From an uncultured Poribacteria bacterium (lineage in GTDB: Bacteria > Poribacteria > WGA-4E > WGA-3G), in the NCBI GenBank assembly GCA_958295855.1, contig OY282383.1, positions 183,178 to 247,177 of the forward strand: 64,000 nt of DNA, given 5' to 3'. Every line of letters starts with the position of its first letter. Position 1 is the first letter of the stretch. The notes under the pieces are model-generated. The model searched no databases and was not told the origin of the DNA. It saw nothing but the letters and a program-made list of their open reading frames with translations. Of this stretch, positions 22,050-50,164 are shown in pieces. Made by a program: the position numbers and the translations under genes.

Positions 22050-23978
22050 TCAGGGCCAGAATTGATAGAGTGTCGTGTTCGCCAGGATGCTACTAATGCT
22101 CCACAGACTTCCGCATAAATAGTCACCCAGCGCGAGCCCTAAAAACAGCGGCACAGCCTGCCTGTAAGCTTTGAGGCCGCCTTGGTGCAACACAAGTGCC
22201 TTGGCTATCCACGCTACAAACAGACAACTCCAGAGATTGGACATCCCCCAGCTGTTCGCCATGGCATATCCAAGGGGGTGCAAGGGCCACCATAAAAACC
22301 GGGTTCGCAGAAACATCAGCCCCATTGCGACAGCACTTCCGCCGCCGATAAAGGCAAGCGCAGGGACATCGGTTTCTTGCGGATAATTCAACCAATTTTC
22401 GAGCTGCCGGTAAACGCCCCTGCCAAATCCTAATGCCCAAGGGCCATAATAGCCTGTTTCGGCACCATGCCGGTAATAACTATCTAACAGCAACCAGAAG
22501 ACGACGACCGCCCCCACTACCGTTGCGATTAAAATGGCGGCTGCTGTGTGGCGCGGGTTTATTTGCCGGCGCTCTGAAATTTTTAACGCTTCCAGTTCCT
22601 GCGGCATAGGATGCGCGCGATATGCCCGGTTAAAAAACATGTACAGTGAAAACACCGCTTTCGTACGAGTGTTCAGACGCTGAGAGCCAAACGCTGTCAC
22701 TATAAGCCCGTGCGGGTCGACTCGGTGTAAATCATGCACCAAAAATCCCAATTCTGCGCGAAACCGAGCAATCATCGTAGCCAGCAGGAAGTAAATGCCG
22801 AAAAAGAAGGGAATCACCCACAACGACATTCCTGCCTTATACGAGAACAATGTCAAAAACAGCAGGCCACCCACAATACCGAGAAAGGCAATGTGATAAG
22901 GCATCGGTTCGCGCTGCATCTCCGGTTGAGGTCTTCCGCGGAATCCATCTGAGATACCCGCAAAAATCTGTCGGACATGTGTTCTGCCGACCCAGGCAGC
23001 AGTGCCGAGGAGTACCATATACGCGCCGAAGCTTTGCGCGTCCGCATAAGGAAACCCCGGTAGATTCCGCATGCCGAAAACACTACCTGCCATGAGTTCC
23101 AGTTTGTACAGCCAATAGAATGCCCAACATGAGAAGAGCAGATCGAGCGGGATAAGAAAACTAATCCCAATCGCAAACGGATAAAACGAGAGGCGCACGC
23201 CACCCATCGCGTTCCAGGGCCGTCCCGTAAAATACTGATGAATATTTTGCCGTTTGACGGGTAGGTAAGGCACCGCCGGATAAATGGAGTTAAGCAAATT
23301 CAGGAGGCTAATCCCTGCGGCAATGCCGAAACCCAACCACATCAACTTGTTTCTGAAAAAGTCTGTACGTGCCCCAGTCATCGCGAGCGGCAGCTGAATA
23401 ATCGGATATGTAAGCCGTTCACGCTCGGTCCATTGGACCCTGAGCAATGTGTTGATGCACAACATAACAAACATCAACACGAGAATAAAAGCAGTCCACC
23501 AGATGACAGGCACTGCCCATGCCATTAAATGGGCTTTTCGGTAAAGGCTTGATTGCCCCTCATAGTAGCCCGACAAGACACCCGAATCTTGAACTGTCAG
23601 CCATGTCGGGAGTTCTTTCCAAAAAAGTTGTTGCCATTCGTTCTCCGAGGTTGCAAACCGAAACGGATGTCCAAGTATCGTGACTAAAATCTCCATCATA
23701 TCGTGCGAACACAATGAGGAGACAATGCACAACATCACATAGATTGTGAGCAACTCCGCGGGCGTAAGGCTCAGCTTCGTCGACATTTTGCGCAACACCG
23801 CACTCAGCACCATCAGCCAAAAGATGATGAAAATGACATTGGACAGCGGATGGATAAGCGTGGGATGTGTATAGCGGACTACCTCTAATTGGATAATCCA
23901 GAAAACGTTCACCGGAATCAGAATCAGCGCAATGACATAAGCTTTAGGCGTGAGGCCGGGTTCAAAATTGTTTGTCAT
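22050..23978 (-). CDS. Large polytopic integral membrane protein of unknown function (more than 12 predicted TM segments)
   Basis: 642-aa highly hydrophobic ORF. Confidence 0.4.
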   Translation of the reverse strand: MTNNFEPGLTPKAYVIALILIPVNVFWIIQLEVVRYTHPTLIHPLSNVIFIIFWLMVLSAVLRKMSTKLSLTPAELLTIYVMLCIVSSLCSHDMMEILVTILGHPFRFATSENEWQQLFWKELPTWLTVQDSGVLSGYYEGQSSLYRKAHLMAWAVPVIWWTAFILVLMFVMLCINTLLRVQWTERERLTYPIIQLPLAMTGARTDFFRNKLMWLGFGIAAGISLLNLLNSIYPAVPYLPVKRQNIHQYFTGRPWNAMGGVRLSFYPFAIGISFLIPLDLLFSCWAFYWLYKLELMAGSVFGMRNLPGFPYADAQSFGAYMVLLGTAAWVGRTHVRQIFAGISDGFRGRPQPEMQREPMPYHIAFLGIVGGLLFLTLFSYKAGMSLWVIPFFFGIYFLLATMIARFRAELGFLVHDLHRVDPHGLIVTAFGSQRLNTRTKAVFSLYMFFNRAYRAHPMPQELEALKISERRQINPRHTAAAILIATVVGAVVVFWLLLDSYYRHGAETGYYGPWALGFGRGVYRQLENWLNYPQETDVPALAFIGGGSAVAMGLMFLRTRFLWWPLHPLGYAMANSWGMSNLWSCLFVAWIAKALVLHQGGLKAYRQAVPLFLGLALGDYLCGSLWSISSILANTTLYQFWP

Positions 23979-27176: not shown

Positions 27177-27790
27177 GATAGCAAGCTTTTCGTCATTCCT
27201 TGCGGAGTAATCAGGTTGCAAGACGCATCGCGCAATGCACTGTAGATCTCGTCGGAGGTTTCTGATGCCTTAATTGTTTGTAGGGGCAGTGCCTTGTGCC
27301 TGCCCTTCCCCTCCGAATCGCAACACTTTTACAAAAAAGTTGAATATTCCGCTGACATGTGGTAAAATTCGTATTTTCGTCATTCCTTGCGGAGAATTCA
27401 GGTCGCAAGACGCATCTGGCAATGCACTGTAGATCTCGTCGGAGGTTTCTGATGCCTTAATTGTTTGTAGGGGCAGTGCCTTGTGCCTGCCCTTCCCCTC
27501 CGAATCGCAACACTCTTACAAAAAAGTCGAATATTCCGCTGACATGTGGTAAAATTCGCCTTTTCGTCATTCCTTGCGGAGTAATCAGGTTGCAAGACGC
27601 ATCTGGCGCTGCACTGTAGCTCTCGTCGGAGGTTTCTGATGCCTTAATTGTTTGTAGGGGCAGTGCCTTGTGCCTGCCCTTCCCCTCCGAATCGCAACAC
27701 TTTTACAAAAAAGTTGAATATTCCGCTGACATGTGGTAAAATTTGCGGCGTAATGGCATTAACCCCCTGCAAAGCAGGGGCAAATACCCT
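27177..27790 (+). repeat. Three tandem copies of a composite unit of about 184 bp, then a palindromic element
   Basis: Tandem periodicity starting at about 27177, 27361 and 27545. Module order: TTTTCGTCATTCCTTGCGGAGTAATCAG; CTGTAGATCTCGTCGGAGGTTTC; GGGCAGTGCCTTGTGCCTGCCC; promoter-like TTGAATATTCCGCTGACATGTGGTAAAAT. Confidence 0.9.
27714..27742 (+). promoter_or_regulatory. Promoter-like element TTGAAT, 17-bp spacer, TGgTAAAAT (extended -10); promoter-proximal copy of three
   Basis: Identical elements at about 27346-27374 and 27530-27558. Oriented toward fumC. Confidence 0.5.
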
Positions 27791-29752: not shown

Positions 29753-32700
29753 TTAGTCATCATCGTCACTTGCGGTATCAAGCGGTTGTCCCTGATAGGC
29801 AACTTCTATGTTCTGGAAGTCGGAGAAGCCGCTTCCCGCTGGGATAAGCCTACCGAGGATGACGTTTTCTTTTAGCCCGAAGAGCCTGTCGGTTTGACCG
29901 CTCACTGCCGCGTCTGTGAGCACTTTGGTCGTCTGCTGGAAGGAGGCCGCTGAGATAAAACTATCTGTGCTCAAGGAGGCTTTGCTGATGCTCTGGAGTA
30001 TGGGTTCTCCTGTGGCGGGTGTGCCGCCTGCGGTGTCGATGGCACTGTTTTGACGCTGGAACTTGTCGCGGGCGACTTCTTCGTTCGGGTAGAAGGCTGT
30101 ATCGCCGGACTCGGTGACGCGTATCTTTGTCAGCATCTGCCGGACGATGGCTTCGATATGCTTGTCGTTGATGACTCTTGCACCGTAGACTTTCTGGACT
30201 TCATCGACAAGGTATGCCCACACGGCTTCTTCGCCTTCGACGGGTACGCCGTTTATGAGGGTACGCCCGATTCTTAAAATATCGTGCGGGTTGAGGAATC
30301 CATCTGTGAGCGGTTGGCCTGCATCTACCCAGTCGCCTTCGGTGACTCGCCGTTTTTCATCAGGGATGGCATAGACTCTGCTGGTATGCCCTTCATCTAT
30401 GATGCGGTATGTGGGTACGCCTGCCTTGGTGCCTACGGCTTGTACGTGTCCCTCAATTTCGGCGATTTCTGCGGCATTTTCTCGCTTGGGACGCCGGGCT
30501 TCAAACAGTTCTGTGACGCGGGGTATGCCTGCTACGATGTCTCGGTTCGCGGTTTTCTCATGCAGTTCTGCGAGGGTGTCTTCTGCATCAATGCTATCCC
30601 CTTCTTCGACGGAGAAGGAGTAACCGAGAGGTATGAGATGCGGCACGTAAGCACCCTGACTGTTCACGATTTCGATATGCATGCGCATGTCGAGCTCGGC
30701 TGTTTCAAAGCCGGCGTATTGTGCAAAAGTTGTCTTGTATGCTTCTTCAGTCAATACCTCGCCGACGGTATGCCCACAATTGGGATGGAAGACATCCGTG
30801 ACGGTGTAGGTTTTCCGCTGGTTCTCCTTCTGTAGCTTGCGGTATTCCTTTTCGCCTAGAATGTGCCCAGGGTCGAACTGAGGGACAGAGGAATCTGTCC
30901 TTTCGTCCCGGGTGACCTGATTGACGCGTTCGACATCAAACGCTTTGTACTGCCGCTGGTATGATCGGTATTCCTTTTCAGTTAACTCGGTTCCGACTTC
31001 CAACTGCAGGTCGGGGTGATGTACACTAACGACGACATATAGACTCGTGAATTTTCCCGAAATTTCGGGATCTTCTTTACGCAACGACTTATACTGGGCT
31101 TCGCTTAAGCGCTGTCGCGATTCGGAGATCGCTCCTACCTCCTCGTAGTAGCGTTGCACTTCAAACCCCTTGTACTGTCGGCGGTGTGCGCTTGACGCTT
31201 TTTGTGTCAACAATTCACCAGGCTGTAGCGGGCACTCGGGGTGATTGACAGCAGTCACGTGATAGAGTCGTTCCGCCTCAAAGGGTCCCATTGTATTAAC
31301 AGCGGAGGAGGCTGTGATACCTGGGAAAGTGGCTCTGAACTGTTTCTCCTCACCATCGCTGAGCAAGTCACCTGGTTTGAGGGTGCAGTCCGGATGATGC
31401 ACATGGATGACGCGGTGCTTCAACTTTTGAACATTGAACCCAGGAAACCGCTTGTGTTCCTTACGTGCCGCGTCTGTTGTTAGCACGTCGCCGACCTTGA
31501 GGGGGAACTCGGGGTGATAGACTGCGGTGACAACATGCTTCGGGGCATCCAATTCTTTAACCTGAAACGCCCGATACTTTAGACGGGCCTCCTCGTAGGC
31601 GCGTTCGGTTAATTCTCTTCCAATCTGATACTCGGCTGGATCCAGCCCCGAGTTTGCGTCTCCTGTTATCTCAGTATGCATAACGTAGACAGGCTTTGAC
31701 TCCAAGTCAAAGGGGGTAAGCCACGAGGCGATGTCTGAAGCCGACACTTCCTCTCCAACCTCATAAGGGAAGTCTGCCCGAGTGCGCTCGGTTATGCGGT
31801 AGACACGTTCGAAGTGAGAATCCCGGGCGGAGTGGGTATGTTCCCCGCTTTGCGGGGAGAAGGGTTTTGCCCTGCTTTGCAGGGAATTACCCTCTTCACC
31901 CTTTTCAGACTCGCCTCCCTGGGTCGCGCCGACTGAGGCAAGTTCTGTCTCTGTAAAGAGCTGCCCTGTCTCTGAATCTCGGGAAAGCCATTCACCATCA
32001 AACCCTGTGTGCATCTTGGCCTTCAACTCATCTGCTTTTTCGAGTGTGAGCAGCTCCCTCGGTGTAACAGCAATGTCGGGGTGAAGCACTTGCGTCACAC
32101 GGTATTTCTGCGTTACAAAGCGGCCGAAGCCGTATTGCTTCCGGGCCTTGTCATATTGTGCCTGTGACAGCCGGGCGCCTTCCTGAAGGTGGCAGGCATG
32201 CTCCGATACAGCTGCCTCACTTAACTTTTCAACATGTTGAAAAAACGTCTCTTCAATCTCAGGCTCAAGTGAATCAATCTCACTGACGAGGGTTTCACTT
32301 GGTTGACGTACATTGCCGTATTTTTCTGTAAATTGTCGATACTCATCAGAGCTGCTGAACTTTTGGTGGCCTTCTCCGGGTTGTTCCGCATGGCAACCAA
32401 TGCAGAGTGCCGCCAGGTCCCTGGGTTCGTTATGCTTCGTTCCCCGCCGATGGTGGACATGGAGAAACTGTTTATCATCCTTAAGGGCTACACCACACTG
32501 CTCGCACTGCCAACCGGCCCTATCACGATATTTCTCTGAGAGAAACTTCCAAGCGTCTGATGAATAATCAAAATGCTGTCCGAGAACGCTATAACCGTTA
32601 TTTACTTTAGCACGCTCCGATACAGCAGTTACCTCATACTGCCAGGTCTCGGTCTCAAAGCCTTTATAACGTTGTGCGTTTTCAGTGTACTGCTTCTCAC

Positions 32701-35700
32701 TCAACAACTCACCTGGGAGCAATGGGCACTCAGGGTGGTTAACCTGGGTGACCTTGTAAGCAGGTGCATCAAGCTTTGCGCTAGAGGGATGAACCCCCTG
32801 CTTTGCAGCGGCAGACTGACCGATTGTGTTCATCATATCTACTTTGTTGTCGGTTTCCCATGCAGAAGATGGACTGTCGGAGCCGATGGCTATCCAGAGA
32901 TTTCCTTCTTGGCGCACTGTGCTGCCGGGGCGGAAATCGCGGAACCGCACGGTTCCCTTAACTTTCGCAAGAACTTTGCGCTGGCGCGCTTCTGAAATGG
33001 CCTCAACAGCCCCACCGGTGTGGAACGTCCGCATCGTTAGCTGCGTGCCGGGTTCACCAATGGATTGTGCAGCGATGATACCGATGGCTTCGCCGACATT
33101 GACAAGATTGTTGGTCGTCAAATCAATGCCGTAGCACTTTGAACAGACACCTTCGTCGGCTTGACAGGTGAGTACGGAACGCACTTTTACGACTTTGATG
33201 CGCGCGGCCTCAATCTGTGTGGCTTCTTCCTCGGATATCAATTGCTCGCTGGCTTTAAGCACTTGGCCTGTATCTGGGTGGATGATGTCTTCGGCGGCGG
33301 TTCGCCCTCTGATTTTAAATGCAAGGCTGCCGCCTTCAGTTGTAAACTTCTGAATGCTGTTCAGTGTCTTGCAATCTTCAGTGGTAACGCGGACATCTTG
33401 GGCAACATCTACTAACTTCCGGGTTAGATACCCGGATGCGGCGGTTTTCATTGCGGTATCTACTAAGCCTTTGCGCGAGCCGTAGGTGGAGTTGAAATAG
33501 TCTAACACATCTAAGCCTTCGCGATAGGAGGCGGTTATCGGTGTAGAGAGAATGTTGTTGCTCTGATCGGATTTCAAGCCGACAATTGCACTAATTTGCA
33601 TAAATGGGTTCTTCCGCGCGCGCGCTCCACTATCCGCCATAATATGCACTGGACTGAAACCTTTGACGGTTTCAGCGCCTATCTCTACGCCATCAGCATC
33701 TACGTTTGGATGAATCTTACGCGAGTCGCCGCGTTCAACGAGTGATGTCTCTAATTCGGGTAAGGCGGAGAACATCCTTTTCTCAACCTGTTCAATCGCT
33801 TCGAGCCAGATGCGAATTCGCTCATTCTCTAACTCGCCTGTGTCTGTAGCAGAGGTTGTCGCAAGGAGGTTATCCACTTCGGACTGGGCTTTGCTCACTA
33901 AAGCATCCCGGTTGTCGGGCCTGAGGTAATCTGTTATGCAGGGCGATATGCCGCTCAGGGTTGCATAGTGGAAGGCAAGTTTTTGGATTTCCTCAAGCAT
34001 GTTGACTGTAACACGCGTTCCTAATTCGTTGAAACAGTCGTAGACTATCTTGGATAACTCGCGTCCGCTGGCTTCGGCGTTGAAAAAAGGCACCTGCTGC
34101 CGGGAATGCTCGTCTATCCACGCATCCTCGGACGAACTTCCTTTGATTTTCTTGAGTTTATCTGGCAGTACTTCGTTGAAAATAACTCTGCCTACTGTCG
34201 TGAGTATGGGGCTGGCTGTGGCACGCGGCCTGCTACTTTCGTGCTTGCTACTTTCCCCAAAAAAGAGTTGGAGGCTATCGTGTAGTTTGAGTTGGCCGGC
34301 TGCGTGCGCGGCGATAACTTCTTCTGTATTTGAATAGCGACGGTGGTACCAAGGTTTTTGGCGGAGCTCATCCAGTCGCGATTCGGAGATGGCTCCTACC
34401 GATTGCGCGATAAACTCATGCAACAACTTTGCATCCTCAGCATGTCCCGGCAGTTCCTTCGTCAGGAAACTCGGCCCTAGCACCATGTCAAGCTCCGGTA
34501 CTGCAATTGGACCGCCGTGGGATGGCTTGAGGATATTATGACTGCTGAGCATTAGCAGCTTTGCCTCTGCCTGTGCCTCTACTGTGAGTGGCACATGCAC
34601 TGCCATCTGGTCGCCGTCAAAATCGGCGTTGAATGCCTTACACACAAGGGGAGGTATCCGTATCGATTTGCCTTCTACTAACACTGGCAGAAATGCCTGA
34701 ATGCCAAGCCGATGCAACGTGGGTGGGCGATTCAGTAACACGGGATGGTCGGCTATGACTTCCTCTAAGACTTCCCAGACAGGTGAATTGGACTCCACAT
34801 GCTCGGCGATGTGCTTCGCACGTTTTATCGTCTGCGTATAGTTATACGCTTGCAGCCTCTCGATAATAAATGGCTTGAACAATTCTACGGCCATTCGCTT
34901 GGGCAAACCGCATTGGTGGAGTCCCAGTTCGGGGCCGACGACGATGACGCTTCGCCCAGAGTAATCGACGCGTTTTCCGAGCAGATTCTGACGGAAGCGC
35001 CCGACTTTGCCTTTGAGGATATCGGAGAGTGACTTGAGCGGTCGGTTGCCAGGGCCGGCAACACGCCTGCCGTGCCGCCCGTTGTCAAAGAAGGCATCAA
35101 CGGCTTCTTGTAACATCCGTTTTTCGTTGCGCAAAATGACTTCGGGGGAACGGAGCTGTATTAACTTACGCAGCCGGTTGTTACGATTGATGACGCGGCG
35201 ATACAGATCGTTCAAGTCGCTTGTGGCAAAACGCCCGCCTTCGAGGGAAACAAGGGGCCGTAAGTCCGGGGGAATGACGGGTATCACATCCATAATCATC
35301 CACTCGGGGCGCTGTTCAGATGCGGCAAAGTCAGACAACTGTTTGAGCTGTTTGGATATCTTGAGCTTTTTCTGATGGCTTGTTGTTTCCGAAAGCAGTT
35401 CGGTGAGTTTCTCTTTCTCTGCCTGCAGGTCGATGCTGTTCAGAATCTCAGAAATGACTTCGGCGCCAGTCCCTGCGCGAAATTGACCGGGGTACTGGTG
35501 TTTCGCTTGCTCGTATTCTAATTCTGTTAGGACCTGACGCGGCTGCAGCGGACAGTCCGGGTCGCTGACGGATACAACAACAAAGGCTTCAAAATAGATG
35601 ATGCGTTCTACTTGGCGTGAGGAGAGATTACAAAAGGTGCCGATTCGTGACGGTATGCCTTTGAAGAACCAGATGTGGGAAACTGGGGCGGCGAGCTGGA

Positions 35701-36058
35701 TATAACCGAGGCGCTGCCTGCGTACGCGCTGCTGCGTTACCTCAACTCCACACCGGTCGCATATCACTCCCTTGTGCTTTATCCGTTTATATTTCCCACA
35801 ACTACACTCAAAGTCTTTTTGCGGGCCGAAGATGGCTTCGCAGAATAGCCCTTCCGGTTCTGGCCGGAGGGAGCGATAATTAATGGTTTCTGCCTTCCTC
35901 ACTTCGCCGCAGTTACACCTTCCCATCTCCGGACAGATAAAGGGTTCTCTTGTGGATTGGGATGTGCTACGACGCTTACAACAGGTTTGCTTGGCTAATG
36001 CTTTTATCTCCTGGGGTGAGGCTATTTTTATCGAAATACTGTCAAACGCTGTTTTCAT
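29753..36058 (-). CDS. rpoC: DNA-directed RNA polymerase subunit beta' with a very large trigger-loop insertion (SI3-like, about 800 aa) containing SBHM-type repeats, an HNH motif and in-frame repeat elements
   Basis: 2101 aa. Canonical beta' blocks: NADFDGDQM and MRTFHTGGA, then an insertion, then GIPRVTELFEARRP. RBS AGGAA within the upstream repeat. Confidence 0.95.
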   Translation of the reverse strand: MKTAFDSISIKIASPQEIKALAKQTCCKRRSTSQSTREPFICPEMGRCNCGEVRKAETINYRSLRPEPEGLFCEAIFGPQKDFECSCGKYKRIKHKGVICDRCGVEVTQQRVRRQRLGYIQLAAPVSHIWFFKGIPSRIGTFCNLSSRQVERIIYFEAFVVVSVSDPDCPLQPRQVLTELEYEQAKHQYPGQFRAGTGAEVISEILNSIDLQAEKEKLTELLSETTSHQKKLKISKQLKQLSDFAASEQRPEWMIMDVIPVIPPDLRPLVSLEGGRFATSDLNDLYRRVINRNNRLRKLIQLRSPEVILRNEKRMLQEAVDAFFDNGRHGRRVAGPGNRPLKSLSDILKGKVGRFRQNLLGKRVDYSGRSVIVVGPELGLHQCGLPKRMAVELFKPFIIERLQAYNYTQTIKRAKHIAEHVESNSPVWEVLEEVIADHPVLLNRPPTLHRLGIQAFLPVLVEGKSIRIPPLVCKAFNADFDGDQMAVHVPLTVEAQAEAKLLMLSSHNILKPSHGGPIAVPELDMVLGPSFLTKELPGHAEDAKLLHEFIAQSVGAISESRLDELRQKPWYHRRYSNTEEVIAAHAAGQLKLHDSLQLFFGESSKHESSRPRATASPILTTVGRVIFNEVLPDKLKKIKGSSSEDAWIDEHSRQQVPFFNAEASGRELSKIVYDCFNELGTRVTVNMLEEIQKLAFHYATLSGISPCITDYLRPDNRDALVSKAQSEVDNLLATTSATDTGELENERIRIWLEAIEQVEKRMFSALPELETSLVERGDSRKIHPNVDADGVEIGAETVKGFSPVHIMADSGARARKNPFMQISAIVGLKSDQSNNILSTPITASYREGLDVLDYFNSTYGSRKGLVDTAMKTAASGYLTRKLVDVAQDVRVTTEDCKTLNSIQKFTTEGGSLAFKIRGRTAAEDIIHPDTGQVLKASEQLISEEEATQIEAARIKVVKVRSVLTCQADEGVCSKCYGIDLTTNNLVNVGEAIGIIAAQSIGEPGTQLTMRTFHTGGAVEAISEARQRKVLAKVKGTVRFRDFRPGSTVRQEGNLWIAIGSDSPSSAWETDNKVDMMNTIGQSAAAKQGVHPSSAKLDAPAYKVTQVNHPECPLLPGELLSEKQYTENAQRYKGFETETWQYEVTAVSERAKVNNGYSVLGQHFDYSSDAWKFLSEKYRDRAGWQCEQCGVALKDDKQFLHVHHRRGTKHNEPRDLAALCIGCHAEQPGEGHQKFSSSDEYRQFTEKYGNVRQPSETLVSEIDSLEPEIEETFFQHVEKLSEAAVSEHACHLQEGARLSQAQYDKARKQYGFGRFVTQKYRVTQVLHPDIAVTPRELLTLEKADELKAKMHTGFDGEWLSRDSETGQLFTETELASVGATQGGESEKGEEGNSLQSRAKPFSPQSGEHTHSARDSHFERVYRITERTRADFPYEVGEEVSASDIASWLTPFDLESKPVYVMHTEITGDANSGLDPAEYQIGRELTERAYEEARLKYRAFQVKELDAPKHVVTAVYHPEFPLKVGDVLTTDAARKEHKRFPGFNVQKLKHRVIHVHHPDCTLKPGDLLSDGEEKQFRATFPGITASSAVNTMGPFEAERLYHVTAVNHPECPLQPGELLTQKASSAHRRQYKGFEVQRYYEEVGAISESRQRLSEAQYKSLRKEDPEISGKFTSLYVVVSVHHPDLQLEVGTELTEKEYRSYQRQYKAFDVERVNQVTRDERTDSSVPQFDPGHILGEKEYRKLQKENQRKTYTVTDVFHPNCGHTVGEVLTEEAYKTTFAQYAGFETAELDMRMHIEIVNSQGAYVPHLIPLGYSFSVEEGDSIDAEDTLAELHEKTANRDIVAGIPRVTELFEARRPKRENAAEIAEIEGHVQAVGTKAGVPTYRIIDEGHTSRVYAIPDEKRRVTEGDWVDAGQPLTDGFLNPHDILRIGRTLINGVPVEGEEAVWAYLVDEVQKVYGARVINDKHIEAIVRQMLTKIRVTESGDTAFYPNEEVARDKFQRQNSAIDTAGGTPATGEPILQSISKASLSTDSFISAASFQQTTKVLTDAAVSGQTDRLFGLKENVILGRLIPAGSGFSDFQNIEVAYQGQPLDTASDDDD
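32380..32515 (-). other. HNH nuclease motif embedded in the rpoC trigger-loop insertion
   Basis: Motif: CEQCG, then LHVHHRRG, then N, then LCIGCH, spaced as in HNH domains. No intein splice-block signatures nearby. Confidence 0.6.
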
Positions 36059-36462
36059 ATTTTCGCTATTCCTTGCGGTGTAATCAGGTTGTAAGGTTCA
36101 TCGAGGGTTACACTGTAGATCTCGCTGGAGGTTTTCGCTATTCCTTGCGGAGTAATCAGGTTTTCGCTATTCCTTGCGGTGTAATCAGGTTGTAAGGTTC
36201 ATCGAGGGTTACACTGTAGATCTCGCTGGAGGTTTTCGCTAAAAGGGTTCGAAGGTGCCAAGAATTTTGACACCTTGTTCCTGTCTGTAATTTGCGGAGA
36301 ATTCAGCATGGGCAGGCACAAGGCACTGCCCCTACAGATACAAGCCTTGCATCAAAAACCTCCGACGAGATCTCTAATGCGATGACAACTACATAATGCC
36401 AATGGTATTTGCCCCTGCTTTGCAGGGGTTTTATACCAATTCGAGTTCTCCGCAAGGAATGA
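36059..36462. repeat. rpoB-rpoC intergenic mosaic: two copies of TTTTCGCTATTCCTTGCGGTGTAATCAGGTTGTAAGGTTCATCGAGGGTTACACTGTAGATCTCGCTGGAGG, plus GGGCAGGCACAAGGCACTGCCCCTACAG and a palindromic element
   Basis: Direct reading of the sequence. Provides the rpoC SD and the rpoB stop codon. Confidence 0.85.
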
Positions 36463-39400
36463 CTAAAGGTCTGAGTCGCGATTGAGTGTCACGTTCAGAC
36501 CAAGGCTCTGGAGTTCTCGCACGAGCACGTTAAACGATTCGGGCGTGCCGGGCGGGTTTGGGTTCAGCCCCTTAACTATGGATTCATAGATTTCCGATCT
36601 GCCTGCCACGTCGTCCGATTTGAGGGTGAGCATCTCCTGGAGCGTATGCGCAGCGCCATAGGCTTCAAGTGCCCACACTTCCATTTCACCGAGTCGCTGG
36701 CCGCCATGTTGCGCCTTACCGCCCAGAGGTTGCTGGGTGACAAGCGAGTAAGGGCCTGTGGAGCGCGCATGCATCTTGTCTGCTACAAGATGGTTCAGTT
36801 TAAGGAAATAGACGTAGCCGACTGTGACTTCTTGGGCAAAGGGTTCACCTGTCCTGCCATCATAAAGTACGCTTTTCCCTGTCTTTTTACTGCGTTCGGG
36901 GAGGTTCGTTTTTCCGAGCAGTTCAAAGATTTCAGTCTCTGTTGCTCCGTCAAATACGGGGGATTCTGCGCGTATGCCTAATGCGTGGCACGCCCATCCG
37001 AGGTGAATTTCTAAGATTTGCGCGACATTCATTCGTGATGGGACGCCTAAGGGGTTCAGCACGATTTCAACGGGTGTGCCATCTGGCATATAGGGCATAT
37101 CTTCAGCTGGCAGGATTTTTGCCACAACGCCTTTATTGCCATAACGGCCTGCCATTTTATCGCCAACGGAAATGGGACGTTTACTCGCGATATAAACTTT
37201 GACGCGTTTGATAACACCGGGTTTGAGTTCATCTCCCATCTCCAATTGCTTGAGGGCGCGTTCTTTCTCCTCTGTGTAGGCGGCTATCCTGCCTTGCGCC
37301 ATCTCCTCAACGCGGCGAATGTGTTCCATTGCGGCAGCATCCGTTACGCAAACGGATGATAACGCTATGCCAGGTGTGTCTAATAGCTCAGCTGTCACTG
37401 TGTCACCCGCAGCAAACGACGTTGGGGCAGCACTTTGTTCGGAATTCCCGCCCTGCCCCTTTGCCTCTTCACTGCTTTGCTTCCCGCCCGGTTTCCCATC
37501 ATGGGCAACCAGGAGGATAGCCTCCGCGTTGGTATGTTCCCCACTTTGCTTCCCGCCCTGCCCCTTTGCCTCTTCACCCTTTTCCCCATCGTGCCTAACC
37601 TGTGCCACTACAGGCAATGCAAGTTCACAACCAAGGAGCATGTTGCGTATTTCTTCGTCCTTCCGGTGGCGTATGGATGCGATGTGCGTCCTCCACGTCT
37701 CCTCGCTCTGCTTACGTTTGGATTCATAGCGCAATTCTTCAATTCTTGATGCGCCTGTTTCCGAACGTGTCCAGCCGCCGCGGCGTTGCAATCCATCTGG
37801 CTTTCGGGAAAACACTTTGACATCAATTACTATGCCTTCAACGCCGGGGCGGATGTAGGTGGAGGCATCGCGGACATCTCGTGCTTTTTCGCCGAAGATG
37901 GCGTGCAGCAGTTTTTCTTCGGGGCCATACTCACTTTCGCCTTTGGGCGTAATTTTTCCCACGAGGATACTGCCGGCACTGACAACACTGCCAACGCGGA
38001 TGATGCCTTCCTCATCAAGCTGCAAAAGGCGTTGCTCGCTCATGTTCGGAATGTCGCGCGTTATCTCCTCTGGGCCCACCTTCGTTTCGCGTGCCTCTAC
38101 TTCGACTTCTTCAATATGAATAGAGGTAAAGGTGTCCTTGCGGATGAGGGTTTCACTAATGAGGATAGAGTCCTCATAGTTGTGCCCGCCCCAGGGCATA
38201 TAGGCGCACAAGATATTTCTGCCGAGGGCGAGTTCACCTCCGTCGGTGGATGTGCCGTCGGCAATAACATCGCCTGCTTGCACTTTATCGCCTACAGAAA
38301 CGATTGGATGCTGGTGGATACAGGTGCCACTGTTACTGCGCTTGAAAGTCTGGAGTTTGTACTGGTCGTATCCCATTTCGCTAAATCCATGCTCGCCGGT
38401 GTCGGTATGCAGCACTTCGCCGGTGTGTATGAGGATTTCGTCAGCGGAGATACTTGCGACGGTGCCGCTGCGGATGGCGGTTCGGAGGGCTCCGGAGTCC
38501 AGTGCGGCGCGGGTTTCCATGCCTGTAGCTACAAGAGGGGCTTCCGGACGGATGAGGGGGACGGCTTGGCGTTGGTGGTTGGCTCCCATCAATGCGCGGT
38601 TCGCGTCTTCGTGCTCGAGGAACGGAACAAGGGAGGCAGAAACGCCAACTATCTGTTGCGGCGCGATGCCAACATAGTCAATTTCAGTGGATTTCGTTTC
38701 TTTGAATTCTATGACGTCGCCCTCTTTGGCATCGTTCCAGCGTCGCATGGCACGGACAGAATAGCCATGGCGGTTTTTCTTTCCTGCTTTATGGAAAGCA
38801 TCTGCGGATGCAATGGTACAGCCCAGCTCTGCATCTGCAGTCAAATACTCAATCCGGTCAGTGAGCTTACCCTCAACAATGACTTGATAGGGCGTTTCCA
38901 AGAACCCGTAGCGATTGACGCGTGCGAATGTAGCGAGCGATACAATCAGCCCGATTGAGGGCCCTTCTGGGGTTTCAAGCGGACATACACGCCCGAAATG
39001 CGTTTCGTGAACGTCGCGGACAGCTGCGGTTGCCCTGTCGCGATGTAGTCCGCCGGGCCCGATTGCGGAGATGCGGCGTTTGTGCGTCAACTCATCCAGG
39101 GGATTGATTTGTTGCATAAACTGCGAGAGTTGGTTAGAGCCAAAAAACTCACGGAGTGCCATCATGAGTGGTTTGGGGTTCACCAATGCGCCGGGTGTTG
39201 CTTTGGCGCGGTCCTTGAGGATATCGACAGCACTGAGGCGTTCGCGTGTCGTTCTACGGATTTGGAATAATCCCATTCTGAATTGGTTTTCTAGCAGTTC
39301 CCCGATAACTCTGACGCGCCGATTTTCGAGATTGTCCTGGTCGTCCTTGGGTACAAGTTTGTTCTGCACCTGTATGAGGTATGCCAGTGTTGCGGTGATA

Positions 39401-41013
39401 TCCTCTCCGGTGCGGCGGAGTGTGCGGACGCTTTCGTCTGGCATTGTCCATTTCCCCTGCGTGCGTGCTGCGGTATATCCATCAAGCGTGCGGGGTGTTC
39501 CGTCGGGTACCTCTCCATAAATAGGTAGTTCTCCCAATTTCTGATTGAGTTTGTATCTGCCGACAACGCCGAGGTCGTAGCGTTGTGGGTCGAAGAGTAG
39601 CCAATCGAGTTGTCGTTGTGCATTCTCTAGGGTAGCGGAATCCCCCGGTCTGAGGGTTCGGAAGATCTCCAGTCGTGCGGCGTCGCCTAGGGTATGCTGG
39701 GAGGCGTATTCAGATTCCCGGTCTTTTTCAAGGGTGTTGCGTAAAAATCGGATACGTTGGCAATCCTCTGGATGGAGGACGGTGAGTGCTTGGATGCCGG
39801 CTTCGGTGAGGCGGTCCAACTCAGTCTGGGTGAGTAGGGTATTGGCTGTGATGAGGCATTCACCAGTGTCGGGTGAAATGACTGGTTCAGCACAGACGCG
39901 CTCGACCTGGTTCTGAATATCCGTGGGTTGCAGGGGTGTAGCCGTAAACATTGCGTCTCCGTCATGGTAACCGTATCTGGCTCTCGCTTCTAGGTATTCG
40001 GCTTGGGTTAAGATTTGCCCGGGAGTCAACTCACATCCGGAGTTTTGAATAGCCAGGATGCGGTGGAGAGGTTCGGTCTGAAAGCCCTTGGATTTTCTGC
40101 GGGAGCTTGCGCGTTCTTTCTCGGTTATAATTTGTCCCTGCTCCAAGGGGCAGTCTGCGTCTGTGACTTCGGTAACGCGATGGCATTTTTCGGTGTCAAT
40201 CCCGTTATATTGCTTGCGTGCGTGCCTCAGTTCAGTGCTCGTTAGCAGTTGCCCGGGCGTGAGGGGACATTTGGCAAGGGAGACTTCTGTGACGCGCCAG
40301 CCTTGAAGTACGAGGCGTTCGGTTTTGGCATAAAGTTTCAAGATGTCGGCATCAGTTTCCCAGCCGAGGGCGCGGAGGAGTACGGTTGCTGGGAGTTTCT
40401 TGCGCTTGTCCATGCGGACATAGATTTGCTCCTTGGTATCCACCTCAAACTCTACCCATGCGCCGCGGTAAGGGATAATTTGTGCTGTGGGGCTTCGTTC
40501 GGTTGTCAAAGCTTTGTCTTTGGCACTCTCGAGGAAGATAACGCCCGGTGAGCGATGCAACTGACTGACTATGACTCTTTCGCTGCCATTAATAATAAAA
40601 CTTCCGCTCTCCGTCATCAATGGGACTTCTCCGAGATAGACGTCGGATTCTCGGATATCGACGACGTGGGGTTCGGTTGCATCCGGGTCTGCCTCGCGTA
40701 TGACGAGCATGACGCGTGCAGTAAGGGATACCTGATAACTCATCCCGCGTGCGACGCATTCTTGTAAGGTATATTTCGGCGTACCCAGGGAGTAGTGGAC
40801 AAATTCAAGGGTGTTGACTTCTGAGAAGTCCCGGATAGGGAACACCTCACGAAAAACGGCTTCAAGCCCATAATTTTCGCGTTTTTGGCCCTTGGTGGGT
40901 TCGACATGTCGCTGTAAGAAGTCTGCATAAGCTCGCTGTTGGGTTTCTATAAGATTCGGAAGCGGGGTTTGAACCTGTGTTTTGGCAAAAGAGATCCTGG
41001 GTTGTTTGTTCAC
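36463..41013 (-). CDS. rpoB: DNA-directed RNA polymerase subunit beta with lineage-specific insertions (BBM2/SBHM-like repeats in the N-terminal third; low-complexity tandem repeat in the SI2 region)
   Basis: ORF 36463..41166. Start moved to the GTG at 41011-41013 (AAGGAGA 7 nt upstream) because the ORF's upstream extension runs through a repeat element. Canonical beta blocks present, for example GDKMAGRYGNKGVVAKI. Confidence 0.9.
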   Translation of the reverse strand: MNKQPRISFAKTQVQTPLPNLIETQQRAYADFLQRHVEPTKGQKRENYGLEAVFREVFPIRDFSEVNTLEFVHYSLGTPKYTLQECVARGMSYQVSLTARVMLVIREADPDATEPHVVDIRESDVYLGEVPLMTESGSFIINGSERVIVSQLHRSPGVIFLESAKDKALTTERSPTAQIIPYRGAWVEFEVDTKEQIYVRMDKRKKLPATVLLRALGWETDADILKLYAKTERLVLQGWRVTEVSLAKCPLTPGQLLTSTELRHARKQYNGIDTEKCHRVTEVTDADCPLEQGQIITEKERASSRRKSKGFQTEPLHRILAIQNSGCELTPGQILTQAEYLEARARYGYHDGDAMFTATPLQPTDIQNQVERVCAEPVISPDTGECLITANTLLTQTELDRLTEAGIQALTVLHPEDCQRIRFLRNTLEKDRESEYASQHTLGDAARLEIFRTLRPGDSATLENAQRQLDWLLFDPQRYDLGVVGRYKLNQKLGELPIYGEVPDGTPRTLDGYTAARTQGKWTMPDESVRTLRRTGEDITATLAYLIQVQNKLVPKDDQDNLENRRVRVIGELLENQFRMGLFQIRRTTRERLSAVDILKDRAKATPGALVNPKPLMMALREFFGSNQLSQFMQQINPLDELTHKRRISAIGPGGLHRDRATAAVRDVHETHFGRVCPLETPEGPSIGLIVSLATFARVNRYGFLETPYQVIVEGKLTDRIEYLTADAELGCTIASADAFHKAGKKNRHGYSVRAMRRWNDAKEGDVIEFKETKSTEIDYVGIAPQQIVGVSASLVPFLEHEDANRALMGANHQRQAVPLIRPEAPLVATGMETRAALDSGALRTAIRSGTVASISADEILIHTGEVLHTDTGEHGFSEMGYDQYKLQTFKRSNSGTCIHQHPIVSVGDKVQAGDVIADGTSTDGGELALGRNILCAYMPWGGHNYEDSILISETLIRKDTFTSIHIEEVEVEARETKVGPEEITRDIPNMSEQRLLQLDEEGIIRVGSVVSAGSILVGKITPKGESEYGPEEKLLHAIFGEKARDVRDASTYIRPGVEGIVIDVKVFSRKPDGLQRRGGWTRSETGASRIEELRYESKRKQSEETWRTHIASIRHRKDEEIRNMLLGCELALPVVAQVRHDGEKGEEAKGQGGKQSGEHTNAEAILLVAHDGKPGGKQSSEEAKGQGGNSEQSAAPTSFAAGDTVTAELLDTPGIALSSVCVTDAAAMEHIRRVEEMAQGRIAAYTEEKERALKQLEMGDELKPGVIKRVKVYIASKRPISVGDKMAGRYGNKGVVAKILPAEDMPYMPDGTPVEIVLNPLGVPSRMNVAQILEIHLGWACHALGIRAESPVFDGATETEIFELLGKTNLPERSKKTGKSVLYDGRTGEPFAQEVTVGYVYFLKLNHLVADKMHARSTGPYSLVTQQPLGGKAQHGGQRLGEMEVWALEAYGAAHTLQEMLTLKSDDVAGRSEIYESIVKGLNPNPPGTPESFNVLVRELQSLGLNVTLNRDSDL

Positions 41014-41039
41014 TTGATGCGGTCTCCTTTTGGTACCGG

Positions 41040-41739
41040 ACTCTGGTGGTGGGCAGGCACAAGGCACTGCCCGTACGGCGCAATGAAATCCCGAGAATAA
41101 AAAAGTTGTTTGCTTTTCGCGCACAACTTGGCTTGCAAGCTTCGCCAAAAAGTGGTGGGCAGGCACAAGGCACTGCCCCTACGGACGCGCCGCCTTTTAA
41201 CCTATTGGCAATAGCATAACAGAATATTATACACTATAATTAGGGGAAAGTCAAGAAAAAATGCATTTTTGTTATTCCTTGCGGAGTAATCAGCATAAGT
41301 AAGAAATAAAAAAGTTGTTCATAAAAATTCACAACTTGGTATGAAACCCCTGCAAAGCAGGGGCAAATACCATTGGCAAGACACATCCAGCAATGCACTG
41401 TAGCTCTCGTTGGAGGTTTCTTATGCAACCTTTCGGGCCAATGGCTGCCCGCCCACCCGTTTCCGTATTGTGGCTAAAAAAGGGGGTGCTTGTTTTTGAC
41501 GTTAATCAAGCTAGGGCATTTAGTTTTCAGTAGTTTTGAGTAAGGGGCGTGGTTGGGTGAGGATTAAGAATTTTCGTCTATGCCTAGTATTTTGATTGGA
41601 TTATGTGGTGTTAATGGCATTGGAGCTCTCGTCGGAGGTTTTGGTCTATGTCTAGTATAATGTGGTATAAAGGTTGACACACCACGTTAACTTGGTATAC
41701 TGTATTAAGGTACGGAAACCCCGTGCTACGGGAGACAAA
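41040..41739. repeat. Repeat-dense intergenic region (GGGCAGGCACAAGGCACTGCCC x2, palindromic element, CCCGCCCACCCGTTTCCG, GGGCATTTAGTTTTCAG, and others)
   Basis: Module families shared with other intergenic regions. Confidence 0.8.
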
Positions 41740-47275: not shown

Positions 47276-47392
47276 GGTCACGGCACGCGGAGGGCTCCTA
47301 CGACTTTGGTCACGGCACGCGGAGCGTGCCTACTACTTTGTGCCTACTACTTTTGGTCACGGCACGCGGAGCGTGCCTACTACTGTTTCCAT
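47276..47392. repeat. Tandem hairpin modules (GGTCACGGCACGCGGAGCGTGCCTACTACT x3, one degenerate) overlapping the 3' end of the DUF1156 gene
   Basis: Same family as 3611-3642 and 14592-14702. Encodes VVGTLRVP plus the stop codon. Confidence 0.85.
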
Positions 47393-50164
47393 CTGCTGTG
47401 GGGCACCCATCGCGGCAGAGATATACGGCCACTCTGTCACGAGGTTGTTGTACGCCGCAGCACTCGACGCATCGCCACGCACCTCATAGTACGCATACAA
47501 GACGCGCGCCAAACGTTTCGCAGACTCCGAATCGCGCATCGCACGCGCAACACCAGCACAGCCCAAAATACCACCGCTGTGCTCTACGCCCGATAAATGC
47601 CACATCATCCGCAGACACCCCTCCCACGCTGTCATCTCTTTTCGATTTTCACGCTCAGCGTATTCTTCCGCTCGCAACAGCCGAACCTTGCCGCGTGACG
47701 CGATGAGCACTCTGTCGTGCAGCGCGGCGATGTCTACATCCTTCGCTTTTGAAAGCCCCTCTGCATCCCCGAAGTTGCCCGCCATGTAGCCGTGCTGCTG
47801 CAACCACGTCAAACAGAACTGACTCTCCGCATCCAGTTCGCCTGTCTCTTTTTCATGATAGGCGGTGATTTCGTTGTTGATGTGCATGAGTGCCTCGCGG
47901 ATTGGCACAATCTCACCGCTGATTCGCATCACTTTGCTATAGCGGGAGTAGACCTCCATGCCGGGGCCGATGGCGGCTTGTGCTAAATCGACCGGCCTGA
48001 TGTTTGTGATGCGGGTGAGTCTGTCAAGTGCGGGTGGCATCTCTTTTTTCAGTGCTTGTAGAAATTCGTTGCGGGTTATGGTGGGGGCATCCTCAGGGCG
48101 CGGCCGACACACTAACACAACAGAGGATGCCAGCGCGTTTTTAGTCGCCTTAAGAGCTGTTGGCCGCTCTGTCCGCATTGGCCAGGTGCCGGTTACCTGA
48201 AAACCAGCGTTGACGATTGCCGTGAGCATCGTCTCCCAGCCGGTGGAGGTTTTTCCATCCTGTTCCTCTTCCTGCTGTTTGTAGGCGTAGAAAATGGATG
48301 TGGGAAATACATCTGTGCAGTGTTGTCGCATTTGCAGCAATGCCTTGCCGAGCAATTCCTCAAAGTGTTGTGTAGGATCTTTAAATCGAGGACTCGCGGT
48401 TATCTCCTCATCCTTTGGAGTCATCATGCCGGCAAACAGTTCGGTATAGGTATCGCGCAGAAGGGGTCTCAGCCAGACATAGAAGAACTCGGACAAATCT
48501 GCATAGCCGATATTATCGTAGTAGGGCGGATCTGTAATAAAAACAGGCATATCCTGAGCATGCGGCGTAGTACATACATCCGCCTGATACGCTTCACCAG
48601 TGTTCGCTGAGGTAGGGAACCTCTCAACAACCCTTGCAATCCATGCTATCTGCGCCAGCCAGTTTTGCGTTGAAGTTGAGAACGGATTTGCTTCAGCAAA
48701 ATCCCACATCATTGAGATTTTTTGCATGCCGAAAACTGGCATAATACTATTCCCCCCGGTGTCCCATATAGCGAAACTGGAACCACTCTCAGCGGTCCGG
48801 TCAATGGCAAAGGCAAGGTAAGTACAAACAGTTGAGGCGTATTCGGATTCTCCTCCATCTTGCAGGATAAGATTACGGACTTCTCCCAGAAGGTCTTTGA
48901 AAGTAGTGAGAGCCGTTAACTGACGTTCTGTGAAAAGTTGATGCCACTCTGTAAACCCATAATTCTGTATAGCAAAACCTAACGCTCGATGCGGCAGTTT
49001 ACCCCTAGGTTTCCACGTAGGTTGAACAGACTGGGCAGTGTGGATATGCGTATTCGCGGGAGGCACGAATATTTTGGGTTTACCGTCTGCGACTATCGCT
49101 GTCATTACCGCTCCCATCTTTCCTGCTTTCGCTTGTTCTCGGACATAAGGCAACTTGACAGCACTCCCGCACGCAAAGCAGTAGGCACCTGTTCGGCTGA
49201 CTGTAGGCTTCGGCACGCCTTCATTATCGGTTTGCACGACCCATGAAATCGTGTTGGATTCCCGGTCAACAACCGGCTTTGTCCAATGCTCATTACCTTT
49301 CTTTCTTGAGAGTTGGAAGGTTTTCATCAGCGGCATCTGGAGTCCACACGCAGGATTGATACACGGCACTGTGCGCGCCCAGATCCATGCCACAACCGTG
49401 GCAGTTTGCCCTGTGGGCAATTCCACGGGTGGATAGAGATGTCCGATGCGTTTGTGTGCTGCCGCGCGCATCCACGCCCCGTAGTAACGGATGTCGGATG
49501 CCAAGCCTGCGGTGCCTTTCCATGGCACACGCGTTTTCCTTTTACCTGTGCCGGTGAACATTCCCATCGGATCGGCATCAGGATGGACCGGTTTCTGGTT
49601 GTGAAACGTCGGGGGTAATTCAATCATCGCCTTGTTGAGCAGGACAGGCAGCGGATTTAGATCGGAGGCGCGGGCACGTAATCCCAGGCGTTGTGCCTCA
49701 AGCGGGATGGAGCCGCCCCCACAAAACGGATCATAGATTGCGGGGCAGTGGTCGCGGAGGTATTGTAGCACTGCATCGGGATTGTTTTCAAACCGCTGGC
49801 GACAATCCGTTAGGTCTTCGGCGTTGTTGCGTGCGACAGAGATGGCGATTTCACGGCGTGCCTCTGCCAAGAGGTTTTCATCGGTGCTATTTTTCCAGAG
49901 CACGAGTCTCCGGAGGAGGTGATGGAGTCGGTTTCGTTCTGCGTTCTGCTCGGGTTCGGTTGGGAATTCGTCTATGCATTCGGAGGGGTCGTCCACCATG
50001 CTGGCGAAGATAACGGCGCGGCATGCAGCGAGGGGACGACGCGCCCACCACTTGTGCAGTGTTGAGGGGTGTCCATGCGTCAGCGAAGCGTCTTTTGCAG
50101 ACTCTTGGTTGATATCTTGGAGGGGTATATTGACCTCAATGAGTTTTTTGCGGTAAGTCGTCAT
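47357..50164 (-). CDS. DUF1156-domain DNA methyltransferase (putative N6-adenine / N4-cytosine, DPPY motif); orphan, with no DUF499/DUF3780 partners nearby
   Basis: 935 aa. N-terminal HKWWARRPLAA motif typical of DUF1156. FITDPPYYDNIGYADLSEFF catalytic motif. Confidence 0.6.
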   Translation of the reverse strand: MTTYRKKLIEVNIPLQDINQESAKDASLTHGHPSTLHKWWARRPLAACRAVIFASMVDDPSECIDEFPTEPEQNAERNRLHHLLRRLVLWKNSTDENLLAEARREIAISVARNNAEDLTDCRQRFENNPDAVLQYLRDHCPAIYDPFCGGGSIPLEAQRLGLRARASDLNPLPVLLNKAMIELPPTFHNQKPVHPDADPMGMFTGTGKRKTRVPWKGTAGLASDIRYYGAWMRAAAHKRIGHLYPPVELPTGQTATVVAWIWARTVPCINPACGLQMPLMKTFQLSRKKGNEHWTKPVVDRESNTISWVVQTDNEGVPKPTVSRTGAYCFACGSAVKLPYVREQAKAGKMGAVMTAIVADGKPKIFVPPANTHIHTAQSVQPTWKPRGKLPHRALGFAIQNYGFTEWHQLFTERQLTALTTFKDLLGEVRNLILQDGGESEYASTVCTYLAFAIDRTAESGSSFAIWDTGGNSIMPVFGMQKISMMWDFAEANPFSTSTQNWLAQIAWIARVVERFPTSANTGEAYQADVCTTPHAQDMPVFITDPPYYDNIGYADLSEFFYVWLRPLLRDTYTELFAGMMTPKDEEITASPRFKDPTQHFEELLGKALLQMRQHCTDVFPTSIFYAYKQQEEEQDGKTSTGWETMLTAIVNAGFQVTGTWPMRTERPTALKATKNALASSVVLVCRPRPEDAPTITRNEFLQALKKEMPPALDRLTRITNIRPVDLAQAAIGPGMEVYSRYSKVMRISGEIVPIREALMHINNEITAYHEKETGELDAESQFCLTWLQQHGYMAGNFGDAEGLSKAKDVDIAALHDRVLIASRGKVRLLRAEEYAERENRKEMTAWEGCLRMMWHLSGVEHSGGILGCAGVARAMRDSESAKRLARVLYAYYEVRGDASSAAAYNNLVTEWPYISAAMGAPQQMETVVGTLRVP

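Follow-up and report, generated by a model that had tools for sequence, protein, structure and literature searches.

A giant trigger-loop insertion in the RNA polymerase β′ subunit of Poribacteria consists largely of sLC-like repeats and, in some species, carries predicted nuclease domains in frame

In all cellular forms of RNA polymerase (RNAP), the trigger loop serves as the moving catalytic element. Large insertions have been described in this loop: SI3 of E. coli comprises 188 aa with two sandwich-barrel hybrid motifs (SBHM), and cyanobacterial Si3, with 645 aa and 8–9 SBHM, consists of domains nested within domains (PMC10895346) and was named the 'largest known' trigger-loop insertion in a 2024 paper (Qayyum et al.). 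A survey of the same year assigned the β′ domains bD2 and bD7 to the 'sLC' domain (CATH 3.30.60.280) and reported combinations of sLC, BEAN and HABAS in bD2, bD4, bD5 and bD7, and only HABAS/SBHM in the trigger loop; neither nucleases nor Poribacteria are mentioned in its text (Alvarez-Carreno et al., 2024; PMC11515920). Two further systems invite comparison, namely ZorE, the HNH nickase effector of type II Zorya, and the nuclease-encoding insertions that lie in frame in conserved essential genes, such as inteins with homing endonucleases in RNAP genes (PMC1635734) and WHO/HO (PMC7282813). Here we describe rpoC, the gene for the RNAP β′ subunit, in a 64,000-nucleotide stretch (hereafter the window) of an uncultured Poribacteria bacterium (assembly GCA_958295855.1, contig OY282383.1, positions 183,178–247,177), and the trigger-loop insertion that this gene encodes.

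The locus at 29753–36058 is the rpoC of a Candidatus Poribacteria bacterium, a sponge symbiont. It forms an uninterrupted open reading frame (ORF) of 2101 aa plus stop codon, as an earlier note on the window had reported with the strand left unstated; it lies on the minus strand, as do all gene features of the window given below. The RpoC equivalog model TIGR02386 scored 1434 bits against a cutoff of 963, and Pfam Rpb1 domains 1–5 were all matched. The translation contains NADFDGDQMAVH, C85/C87/C100/C103, GEPGTQLTMRTFHTGG and GIPRVTELFEARRP, and has the catalytic NADFDGD motif, the zinc-binding Cys and the trigger-loop helices of a bacterial β′ subunit. Scanning a single genome for each GTDB species yielded 57 related loci, all labelled Candidatus or uncultured Poribacteria. 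The conserved RpoC core was ~80% identical between the window and each of them, and in a tree of this core the window RpoC formed a deep branch without a close relative. The gene carries a lineage-specific insertion at the SI3 site, with an unreported building block, an unusual size and an unprecedented nuclease cargo. Its anatomy, consisting of a trigger-loop repeat array, a nuclease cassette embedded in that array and an N-terminal Cys insert, is well supported.

The trigger-loop insertion measures 827 aa (aa 1017–1843; 30530–33010), close to the 800 aa given in the earlier note. It lies between the two trigger-loop helices and is bounded by TFHTGG (aa 1011–1016) and GIPRVTELFEARRP (aa 1844). 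In PDB sequence alignments, the SI3-less RNAPs of Bacillus, Mycobacterium and Thermus aligned only up to or from these boundaries, whereas SI3-bearing RNAPs aligned beyond them into an outer shell: aa 1017–1057 aligned with E. coli β′ 941–974, and aa 1817–1843 with E. coli β′ 1099–1127 and the end of cyanobacterial Si3. These alignments indicate that the insertion site is that of SI3/β′In6 and that the outermost strands, homologous to the SI3 ends, form an SI3-type SBHM shell. The N-terminal strands of this predicted shell span aa 1026–1057 (32888–32983), and the C-terminal strands, with the GD-box-like EEGDSIDAEDTLAEL, span aa 1790–1843 (30530–30691).

The interior of the insertion was analysed with a hidden Markov model (HMM) built from seven seed units. 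This unit HMM recovered the seven seeds and three more matches within the insertion. Moreover, it matched non-seed copies elsewhere, at RpoC 159–192 (E = 9e-12; 8.9e-12) and in three units at RpoB 290–400 (E = 1e-9 to 3e-5). An AlphaFold2 (AF2) model of the whole insert displayed 13 β-β-α units of ~37 aa, each composed of a long hairpin strand, a short strand and a ~10-residue helix, with a predicted local distance difference test score (pLDDT) mostly of 70–88 (model residues 290–770). Unit 1 (aa 1101–1137; 32648–32758) scored 69 bits with the unit HMM and showed the strand-strand-helix order in the AF2 model. Unit 2 is divided by the cassette described below into its N-terminal strand YEVTAVSE (aa 1141–1148; 32615–32638) and a C-terminal part, HACHLQEGARLSQAQYDKARKQYGFGRF (aa 1287–1314; 32117–32200), which was located by a partial unit HMM match and by alignment with the intact units of relatives. 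Units 3–12 and a degenerate unit 3b follow (aa 1319–1787; 30698–32104), as defined by the unit HMM and the AF2 pattern; strong HMM matches start at aa 1319, 1508, 1548, 1599, 1674 and 1751 and weaker ones at aa 1476 and 1727, and a low-complexity linker is found among these units at aa 1381–1417.

The origin of the unit was traced by profile comparison. Alignment of the trigger-loop unit profile with a β′-bD2 profile from 22 non-poribacterial bacteria (hhalign) gave a probability of 95.9% and E = 5.6e-9 over 26 columns, so that the homology extends to the canonical bD2 of unrelated bacteria. A PDB sequence profile search with the units returned weak E-values, with 14 of the 20 matches falling on β′ chains at about residues 134–174. 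The universal β′-bD2 sLC module of the window itself (aa 159–195; 35474–35584), the presumed prototype of the repeat, was identified by the unit HMM match at RpoC 159–192 and by PDB profile matches. Because of this match and the hhalign result, the interior is assigned to the sLC type, and its ~13 tandem β-β-α units would all descend from the bD2 module. The unit has been multiplied at other sites in Poribacteria as well, namely at the β′-bD2 site (L027, L040 and L042), at the bD7 site (L041) and at the β-i4 site of RpoB. The rpoC of L041 (195–7251) has an additional 394-aa insertion at the β′-bD7 site, containing more repeat units and a nested MTES_1575 nuclease.

The three sLC-type units of the window RpoB (aa 290–400; ~39967–40297), detected by the unit HMM and PDB alignments, precede a 'PDTGECL' unit, which aligns with the second half of E. 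coli β-i4. The β-i4 insertion of RpoB is the site of predicted BBM2 repeats (Opalka, 2010; PMC2939025, citing Iyer, 2004). The earlier note had proposed at least eight 'SBHM/BBM2-like' repeats in the trigger loop. The repeats are real and their number was underestimated, given the 13 units of the AF2 model; 'BBM2-like' is acceptable only loosely, because the RpoB copies occupy the β-i4 site, and 'SBHM' is wrong for the interior. A motif like the TG[DE] of BBM2/BEAN domains, which have a two-bracket fold, was limited to 'PDTGECL' of RpoB and 'SETGQLF' of unit 3b, and no structural match of the units to 3LTI was obtained. The reading implied by that label, an expanded SI3 of cyanobacterial type with more SBHM copies, has in its favour the identical insertion point and the outer strands that align with the SI3 ends. 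However, only aa 1017–1057 and 1817–1843 aligned with SI3 strands, the array interior gave neither a Pfam nor an SBHM-type signal, and the interior is instead composed of ~37-aa β-β-α units that match the bD2 sLC profile and RpoC 159–192, not SBHM/HABAS. An SBHM identity of the internal repeats was thus rejected, and we regard an expanded SI3 as very improbable.

Both boundaries could be located in 55 Poribacteria loci, and every one of these has the array, with lengths of 622–1052 aa. The majority of these inserts reach at least 645 aa; the window insert (827 aa) exceeds both E. coli SI3 and cyanobacterial Si3, as the earlier note had proposed, and the longest (L048) has 1052 aa. The poribacterial trigger-loop inserts are comparable to or longer than the known ones and are made from a different building block, and they provide a natural example of very large cargo tolerated on the trigger loop. 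The window insertion resembles Si3 in nesting domains within domains and differs from SI3 and Si3 in carrying an enzyme domain, within a β′ that is unsplit. The extra segments of this β′ are thus phylum-wide among the 55 loci, and no description of them was found in the literature searched. Markedly longer arrays, up to 1052 aa, occur in L048 (9998–13153), L049–L051, L052 and L055 through added unit copies and unexplained inserts; an example of the latter is the SNPNRDHELERA[RH]FV block conserved in L044, L053 and L055.

A clean block of 138 residues splits unit 2 of the window (aa 1149–1286; 32201–32614; 138 codons, 414 nt), and the unit is intact in the six aligned relatives (YEVTAVLDNNCGLKIGERLSQAEY..). 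The core of this block (aa 1165–1250) matched the HNH nuclease domain of the ZorE family (PADLOC, E = 1.5e-24; NCBIfam, E = 4.4e-12), and the domain was absent from the earlier note, as were the rpoB copies of the repeat. The putative zinc ligands C1185, C1188, C1219 and C1222 and the putative catalytic residues H1202/H1203, N1210 and H1223 are all present, forming the CxxC..HH..N..CxxCH arrangement conserved in ZorE, and are invariant in the window, L013 and the sequence P0011. The match is partial, covering positions 193–274 of the 283 in the PADLOC profile and reaching 45 bits against the NCBIfam cutoff of 600. The block is flanked by a perfect 13-nt direct repeat, GCTGTATCGGAGC, and its GC content at third codon positions (GC3) is 0.42 compared with 0.57 for the remaining insert, with no host window of the same size equally low. 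Its junction peptides read VTAVSER and AAVSEHACHLQEGAR, and the cassette-free unit-2 target reconstructed in silico is ..GAGGTAACTGCTGTATCGGAGCATGCCTGCCACCTT...

A composition so unlike that of the host gene would also be expected if the HNH block were a chimeric join made during assembly. This explanation was rejected and is barely credible: both the reading frame and the host unit continue precisely where the 414 nt end, and the identical 2101-aa protein is recorded in two blocks of public assemblies. One of these records is a 17.9-kb contig with a hifiasm-style name, taken as long-read, and the other block includes a contig of >1 Mb. In addition, analogous cassettes occupy the same loop in relatives, in metagenome-assembled genome records titled chromosomes or multi-megabase contigs.

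The cassettes resemble the inteins of RNAP genes and WHO/HO in being in-frame nuclease-encoding insertions in a conserved essential gene and, as shown below, in their sporadic distribution, reuse of one site and signs of lateral transfer and degeneration. They differ from inteins in having neither a Hint splicing domain nor splice-junction residues. An intein was rejected for the window block, in which no Hint/intein Pfam match occurred at E ≤ 10 and the junctions VSE-RAK and VSE-HAC have no splice residues; likewise, no such match was found at E ≤ 1 in the blocks of L006, L048, L055 and L013. A group I or II intron was rejected because no Rfam intron family was detected (whole window at the gathering threshold; 32000–32850 at E ≤ 1) and the frame is continuous with both flanks. 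Since there is neither a Hint domain nor an intron RNA, the HNH domain should remain in the mature β′, where its location in a surface loop of a dispensable-looking repeat would make it tolerable.

Of 1.84 billion representative proteins searched exhaustively with HMMER, 1391 were homologues of the HNH domain, and the best 150 of them were all 82–538 aa long. Among these best 150 and 13 metagenome loci, all were short free-standing ZorE-like proteins, with the sole exception of P0132, a fragment of rpoB. The 13 metagenome loci and the nearest word-search match (a single match) were free-standing ZorE-like proteins with the HNH domain at the C-terminus, suggesting that the cassette is the C-terminal HNH module of a ZorE-like protein. 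The nearest free-standing relative adjoins ZorA- and ZorB-like genes. In contrast to ZorE, the window has only the C-terminal module of ~100 aa, without the N-terminal ZorE region and within RNA polymerase; no other HNH copy was found in the window, and no Zorya genes, ZorA- or ZorB-like, were found among the 10 neighbouring ORFs scanned. The identity of the window HNH domain was ~48–51% to RNAP-embedded copies and 43–51% to the nearest free-standing ZorE-like proteins. A distinct RNAP-embedded HNH subfamily was not obvious. In the literature searched, we found no earlier account of a bacterial RNA polymerase subunit with a nuclease domain inside it.

The window is one of five carriers in which nuclease cassettes of two families are read through in frame, all within one four-residue loop of unit 2. 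L013 has a diverged ZorE-type HNH domain (PADLOC, E = 4.7e-18), and L006, L048 and L055 have a PD-(D/E)xK domain of the REase_MTES_1575 family (Pfam, E = 3.6e-27 to 1.6e-23, above the gathering score), which also matched PADLOC Hhe and PDC-S37. A Pfam scan of 56 arrays revealed no other confident domain type besides nucleases. Outside this loop, the MTES_1575 domain at the bD7 site of L041 is degenerate, with an H→R change. P0132, the best match of the exhaustive search, is a fragment of the frame-disrupted rpoB of L073, a different uncultured lineage whose RpoB is 52–56% identical to that of the window; it contains two tandem ZorE-type HNH copies after 'FLRNTLQRD', the first of which has HH changed to HR and CH to CY. 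In L073 (7015–11924), rpoB is broken into three gene calls, with P0132 as the middle piece; as the assembly of L073 has low coverage, these breaks may be erroneous.

The carriers were scattered in a neighbour-joining tree built from 1220 columns of the RpoC core, and four of them paired with cassette-free sisters (L013 with L008, L006 with L014, L055 with L009/L054, and L048 with L051), the four carriers differing from these sisters by a synonymous divergence (dS) of the host gene of ~0.1–0.5. The ratio of nonsynonymous to synonymous divergence (dN/dS) of the MTES cassettes was 0.15–0.22, indicating purifying selection. Furthermore, the proportion of synonymous differences (pS) between the L006 and L048 cassettes was 0.41, whereas host rpoC windows had a minimum of 0.56 and a median of 0.67. 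None of the 151 windows was as low, which indicates lateral transfer of the cassette between distant lineages. L006 and L055 have in common the altered upstream residues 'DIMD' and an additional half-unit downstream, a pattern that resembles co-converted flanks.

On these grounds, we explain the locus by the anatomy as found together with mobile, intein-less nuclease cassettes that enter a permissive array loop in frame, an account that we hold to be somewhat better than an even call. Homing-like mobility is favoured because the carriers are sporadic singletons and one site is used by two nuclease families, because the window cassette has foreign composition and a direct repeat and one pair shows lateral transfer, and because purifying selection coexists with some degenerate copies. 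The array, like SI3, would sit on the trigger loop outside the active-site channel, where large changes are tolerated, and the unit-2 loop may be a hot spot invaded repeatedly by nuclease-encoding cassettes. These would behave as homing elements without intein or intron, translated within β′ and kept in the mature protein, and would spread among Poribacteria rpoC alleles via recombination, perhaps promoted when cassette-free alleles are nicked or cleaved. They would be held by purifying selection while active and later be lost. The further claim that the ZorE-type HNH and MTES_1575 cassettes of Poribacteria constitute an unrecognised class of mobile elements, homing in frame into the permissive loop of the trigger-loop array and into other RNAP insertion sites and staying working nucleases on the transcribing enzyme, is put forward tentatively, with somewhat less than even confidence.

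Several observations weigh against such mobility. The ZorE that has been characterised nicks DNA weakly and largely without specificity, preferring supercoiled substrates (PMC11890865), and a nickase of this type would seem no obvious homing enzyme. Both the nuclease activity and the site specificity of the cassettes are predicted. The window and L013 HNH domains are 48% identical, below the 58% of their flanks, and are not recent copies of one element. Long flanking direct repeats were seen in the window only and in none of the other carriers, where junction mapping at the DNA level was noisy, and the cassettes of L013, L055 and L048 are not compositionally distinct. A search of JGI metagenomes with a degenerate 41-nt junction pattern gave no match to a cassette-free allele of the window species, a result that is uninformative rather than negative. 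In addition, AF2 confidence was low in the SI3-like shell, and the model is unreliable for the shell and the HNH block; pLDDT was <50 in the latter because the alignment held no homologues there, P0011 having been left out after a MAFFT misalignment. The AF2 model of RpoC residues 1–134 (73 sequences) had a mean pLDDT of 53, with unusable geometry in the N-terminal Cys cluster.

Finally, nucleases of the defence pool recur on RNAP, at three β′ sites and in the RpoB of another lineage, which could equally mean selection for a host function. This is the main rival explanation, in which an RNAP-tethered nickase is kept as useful, for example as a transcription-coupled effector against phages or plasmids or for the relief of supercoiling or conflicts ahead of the polymerase, with the array as a long arm that places the nuclease near downstream or upstream DNA. 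The independent gain of two unrelated defence-typical nuclease folds (ZorE and MTES_1575) at one loop, the intact catalytic motifs, the low dN/dS and the further nuclease inserts at the other β′ site of L041 and in the RpoB of L073 are all consistent with such a role. ZorE, moreover, needs a high local concentration besides its preference for supercoiled DNA (PMC11890865), and tethering to RNAP could supply that concentration. However, a beneficial trait should persist in clades, and the carriers are singletons among the species representatives, each of the four in the tree with a cassette-free sister; some copies are degenerate, and a constitutively active nickase on every RNAP would be hazardous. 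We therefore consider exaptation rather unlikely as an alternative to homing-like mobility, although the two are not mutually exclusive.

The variability of the array raises another explanation, that of neutral domain accretion, in which a permissive array captures small zinc-stabilised domains at random in frame, the nucleases are inactive passengers and the hot spot is the sole harmless loop. Array length (622–1052 aa) and unit number indeed vary greatly among species, the array also takes in linkers of low complexity and part of a dispersed REP-like element (described below), and tolerance of changes is known for SI3-type inserts. Random capture is distinctly unlikely, however, given that the inserts in the 56 scanned arrays are nuclease domains only, that their catalytic residues are conserved under purifying selection and that the data point to lateral transfer. 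Selfish cassettes would represent a new route for homing nucleases in essential genes without intein or intron; exapted ones would imply a polymerase able to nick DNA. With a class of working nuclease cassettes, selfish homing elements and RNAP-tethered defence nucleases would no longer be sharply separated.

The second insertion of the window RpoC lies near its N-terminus. The segment IKALAKQTCCKRRSTSQSTREPFICPEMGRCNCGEV is present, with Cys at 26, 27, 42, 48 and 50, and the micro-insertion itself comprises 27 aa (aa 21–47; 35918–35998), which together with C48 and C50 gives the pattern C27-x14-C42-x5-C48-x-C50. About 27 extra residues with five Cys had been suggested in the earlier note by comparison with E. 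coli. That figure is borne out by the measured IASP-to-GEV spacing, which is 15 aa in 95 of the 119 recovered RpoC N-termini versus 42 aa in the window and Poribacteria. C27, C42, C48 and C50 were invariant in 55/55 Poribacteria N-termini and C26 was limited to the window and L052; the presence of the segment in close relatives excludes a local artefact. Other uncultured lineages (P0016 and P0018–P0020) have inserts of variable length (31–39 aa) that keep the four Cys. The adjacent canonical β′ zinc-binding region (35750–35842), read from the sequence, contains C85, C87, C100 and C103, whose columns were invariant in a 73-sequence alignment. Because exactly four Cys are kept despite the length change, the insert is predicted to hold a metal site, most probably an additional zinc knuckle adjacent to the canonical zinc-binding domain. 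L074 (5213–14287) has a four-Cys N-terminal insert of the form C-x6-C-x5-C-x-C in a normal-sized rpoC of ~1430 aa, which suggests that the Cys insert is older than, or independent of, the giant array. The gene order in L074 is SMC-QueG-rpoB, the same as in L073, and its rpoB and rpoC are each split into several gene calls.

The rpoB gene (36463–41166) lies directly upstream of rpoC on the same strand and scored 1561 bits with TIGR02013. As this match begins only at aa 54, the listed GTG at 41166 is probably too far upstream, with the true start well downstream of it, judging from the profile alignment. At about aa 1175–1235 (37440–37600), RpoB has a low-complexity insert rich in Gly, Lys, Glu and Gln, whose DNA contains internal direct repeats; a 22-nt stretch of it that encodes 'QSGEHT' recurs, with 91% identity, in the rpoC linker at 31832–31853. 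The spacer between rpoB and rpoC is ~400 nt long and has a palindromic hairpin just after the rpoB stop. An 86-nt segment is duplicated in tandem at 36055–36241 (98% identical, 101-nt period), ending at the rpoC start codon. The spacer (36309–36335) and the 5′ end of the listed rpoB ORF (41050–41076) each contain a copy of the 27-nt repeat TGGGCAGGCACAAGGCACTGCCCCTAC.

A dispersed 21-nt palindrome, CCCCTGCAAAGCAGGGGCAAA, has 13 copies in the window at ≤3 mismatches (0.01 expected), at 27764, 29650, 31865, 36408, 41347, 42450, 43592, 45001, 50471, 57401, 58830, 58941 and 60273. Several copies are intergenic, among them those directly following rpoB and rpoC, and resemble repetitive extragenic palindromic (REP) elements or terminator hairpins. 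The copy at 31865 is degenerate and falls inside rpoC, in the stretch that encodes the low-complexity linker (aa 1381–1417). Among the neighbouring genes, a 935-aa protein with an N-terminal DUF1156 domain, which we take to be a domain of DNA methylases of defence islands, is encoded at 47360–50164, 6 kb upstream of rpoB, and a DUF6785/DUF6784 protein is encoded at 22053–23978.

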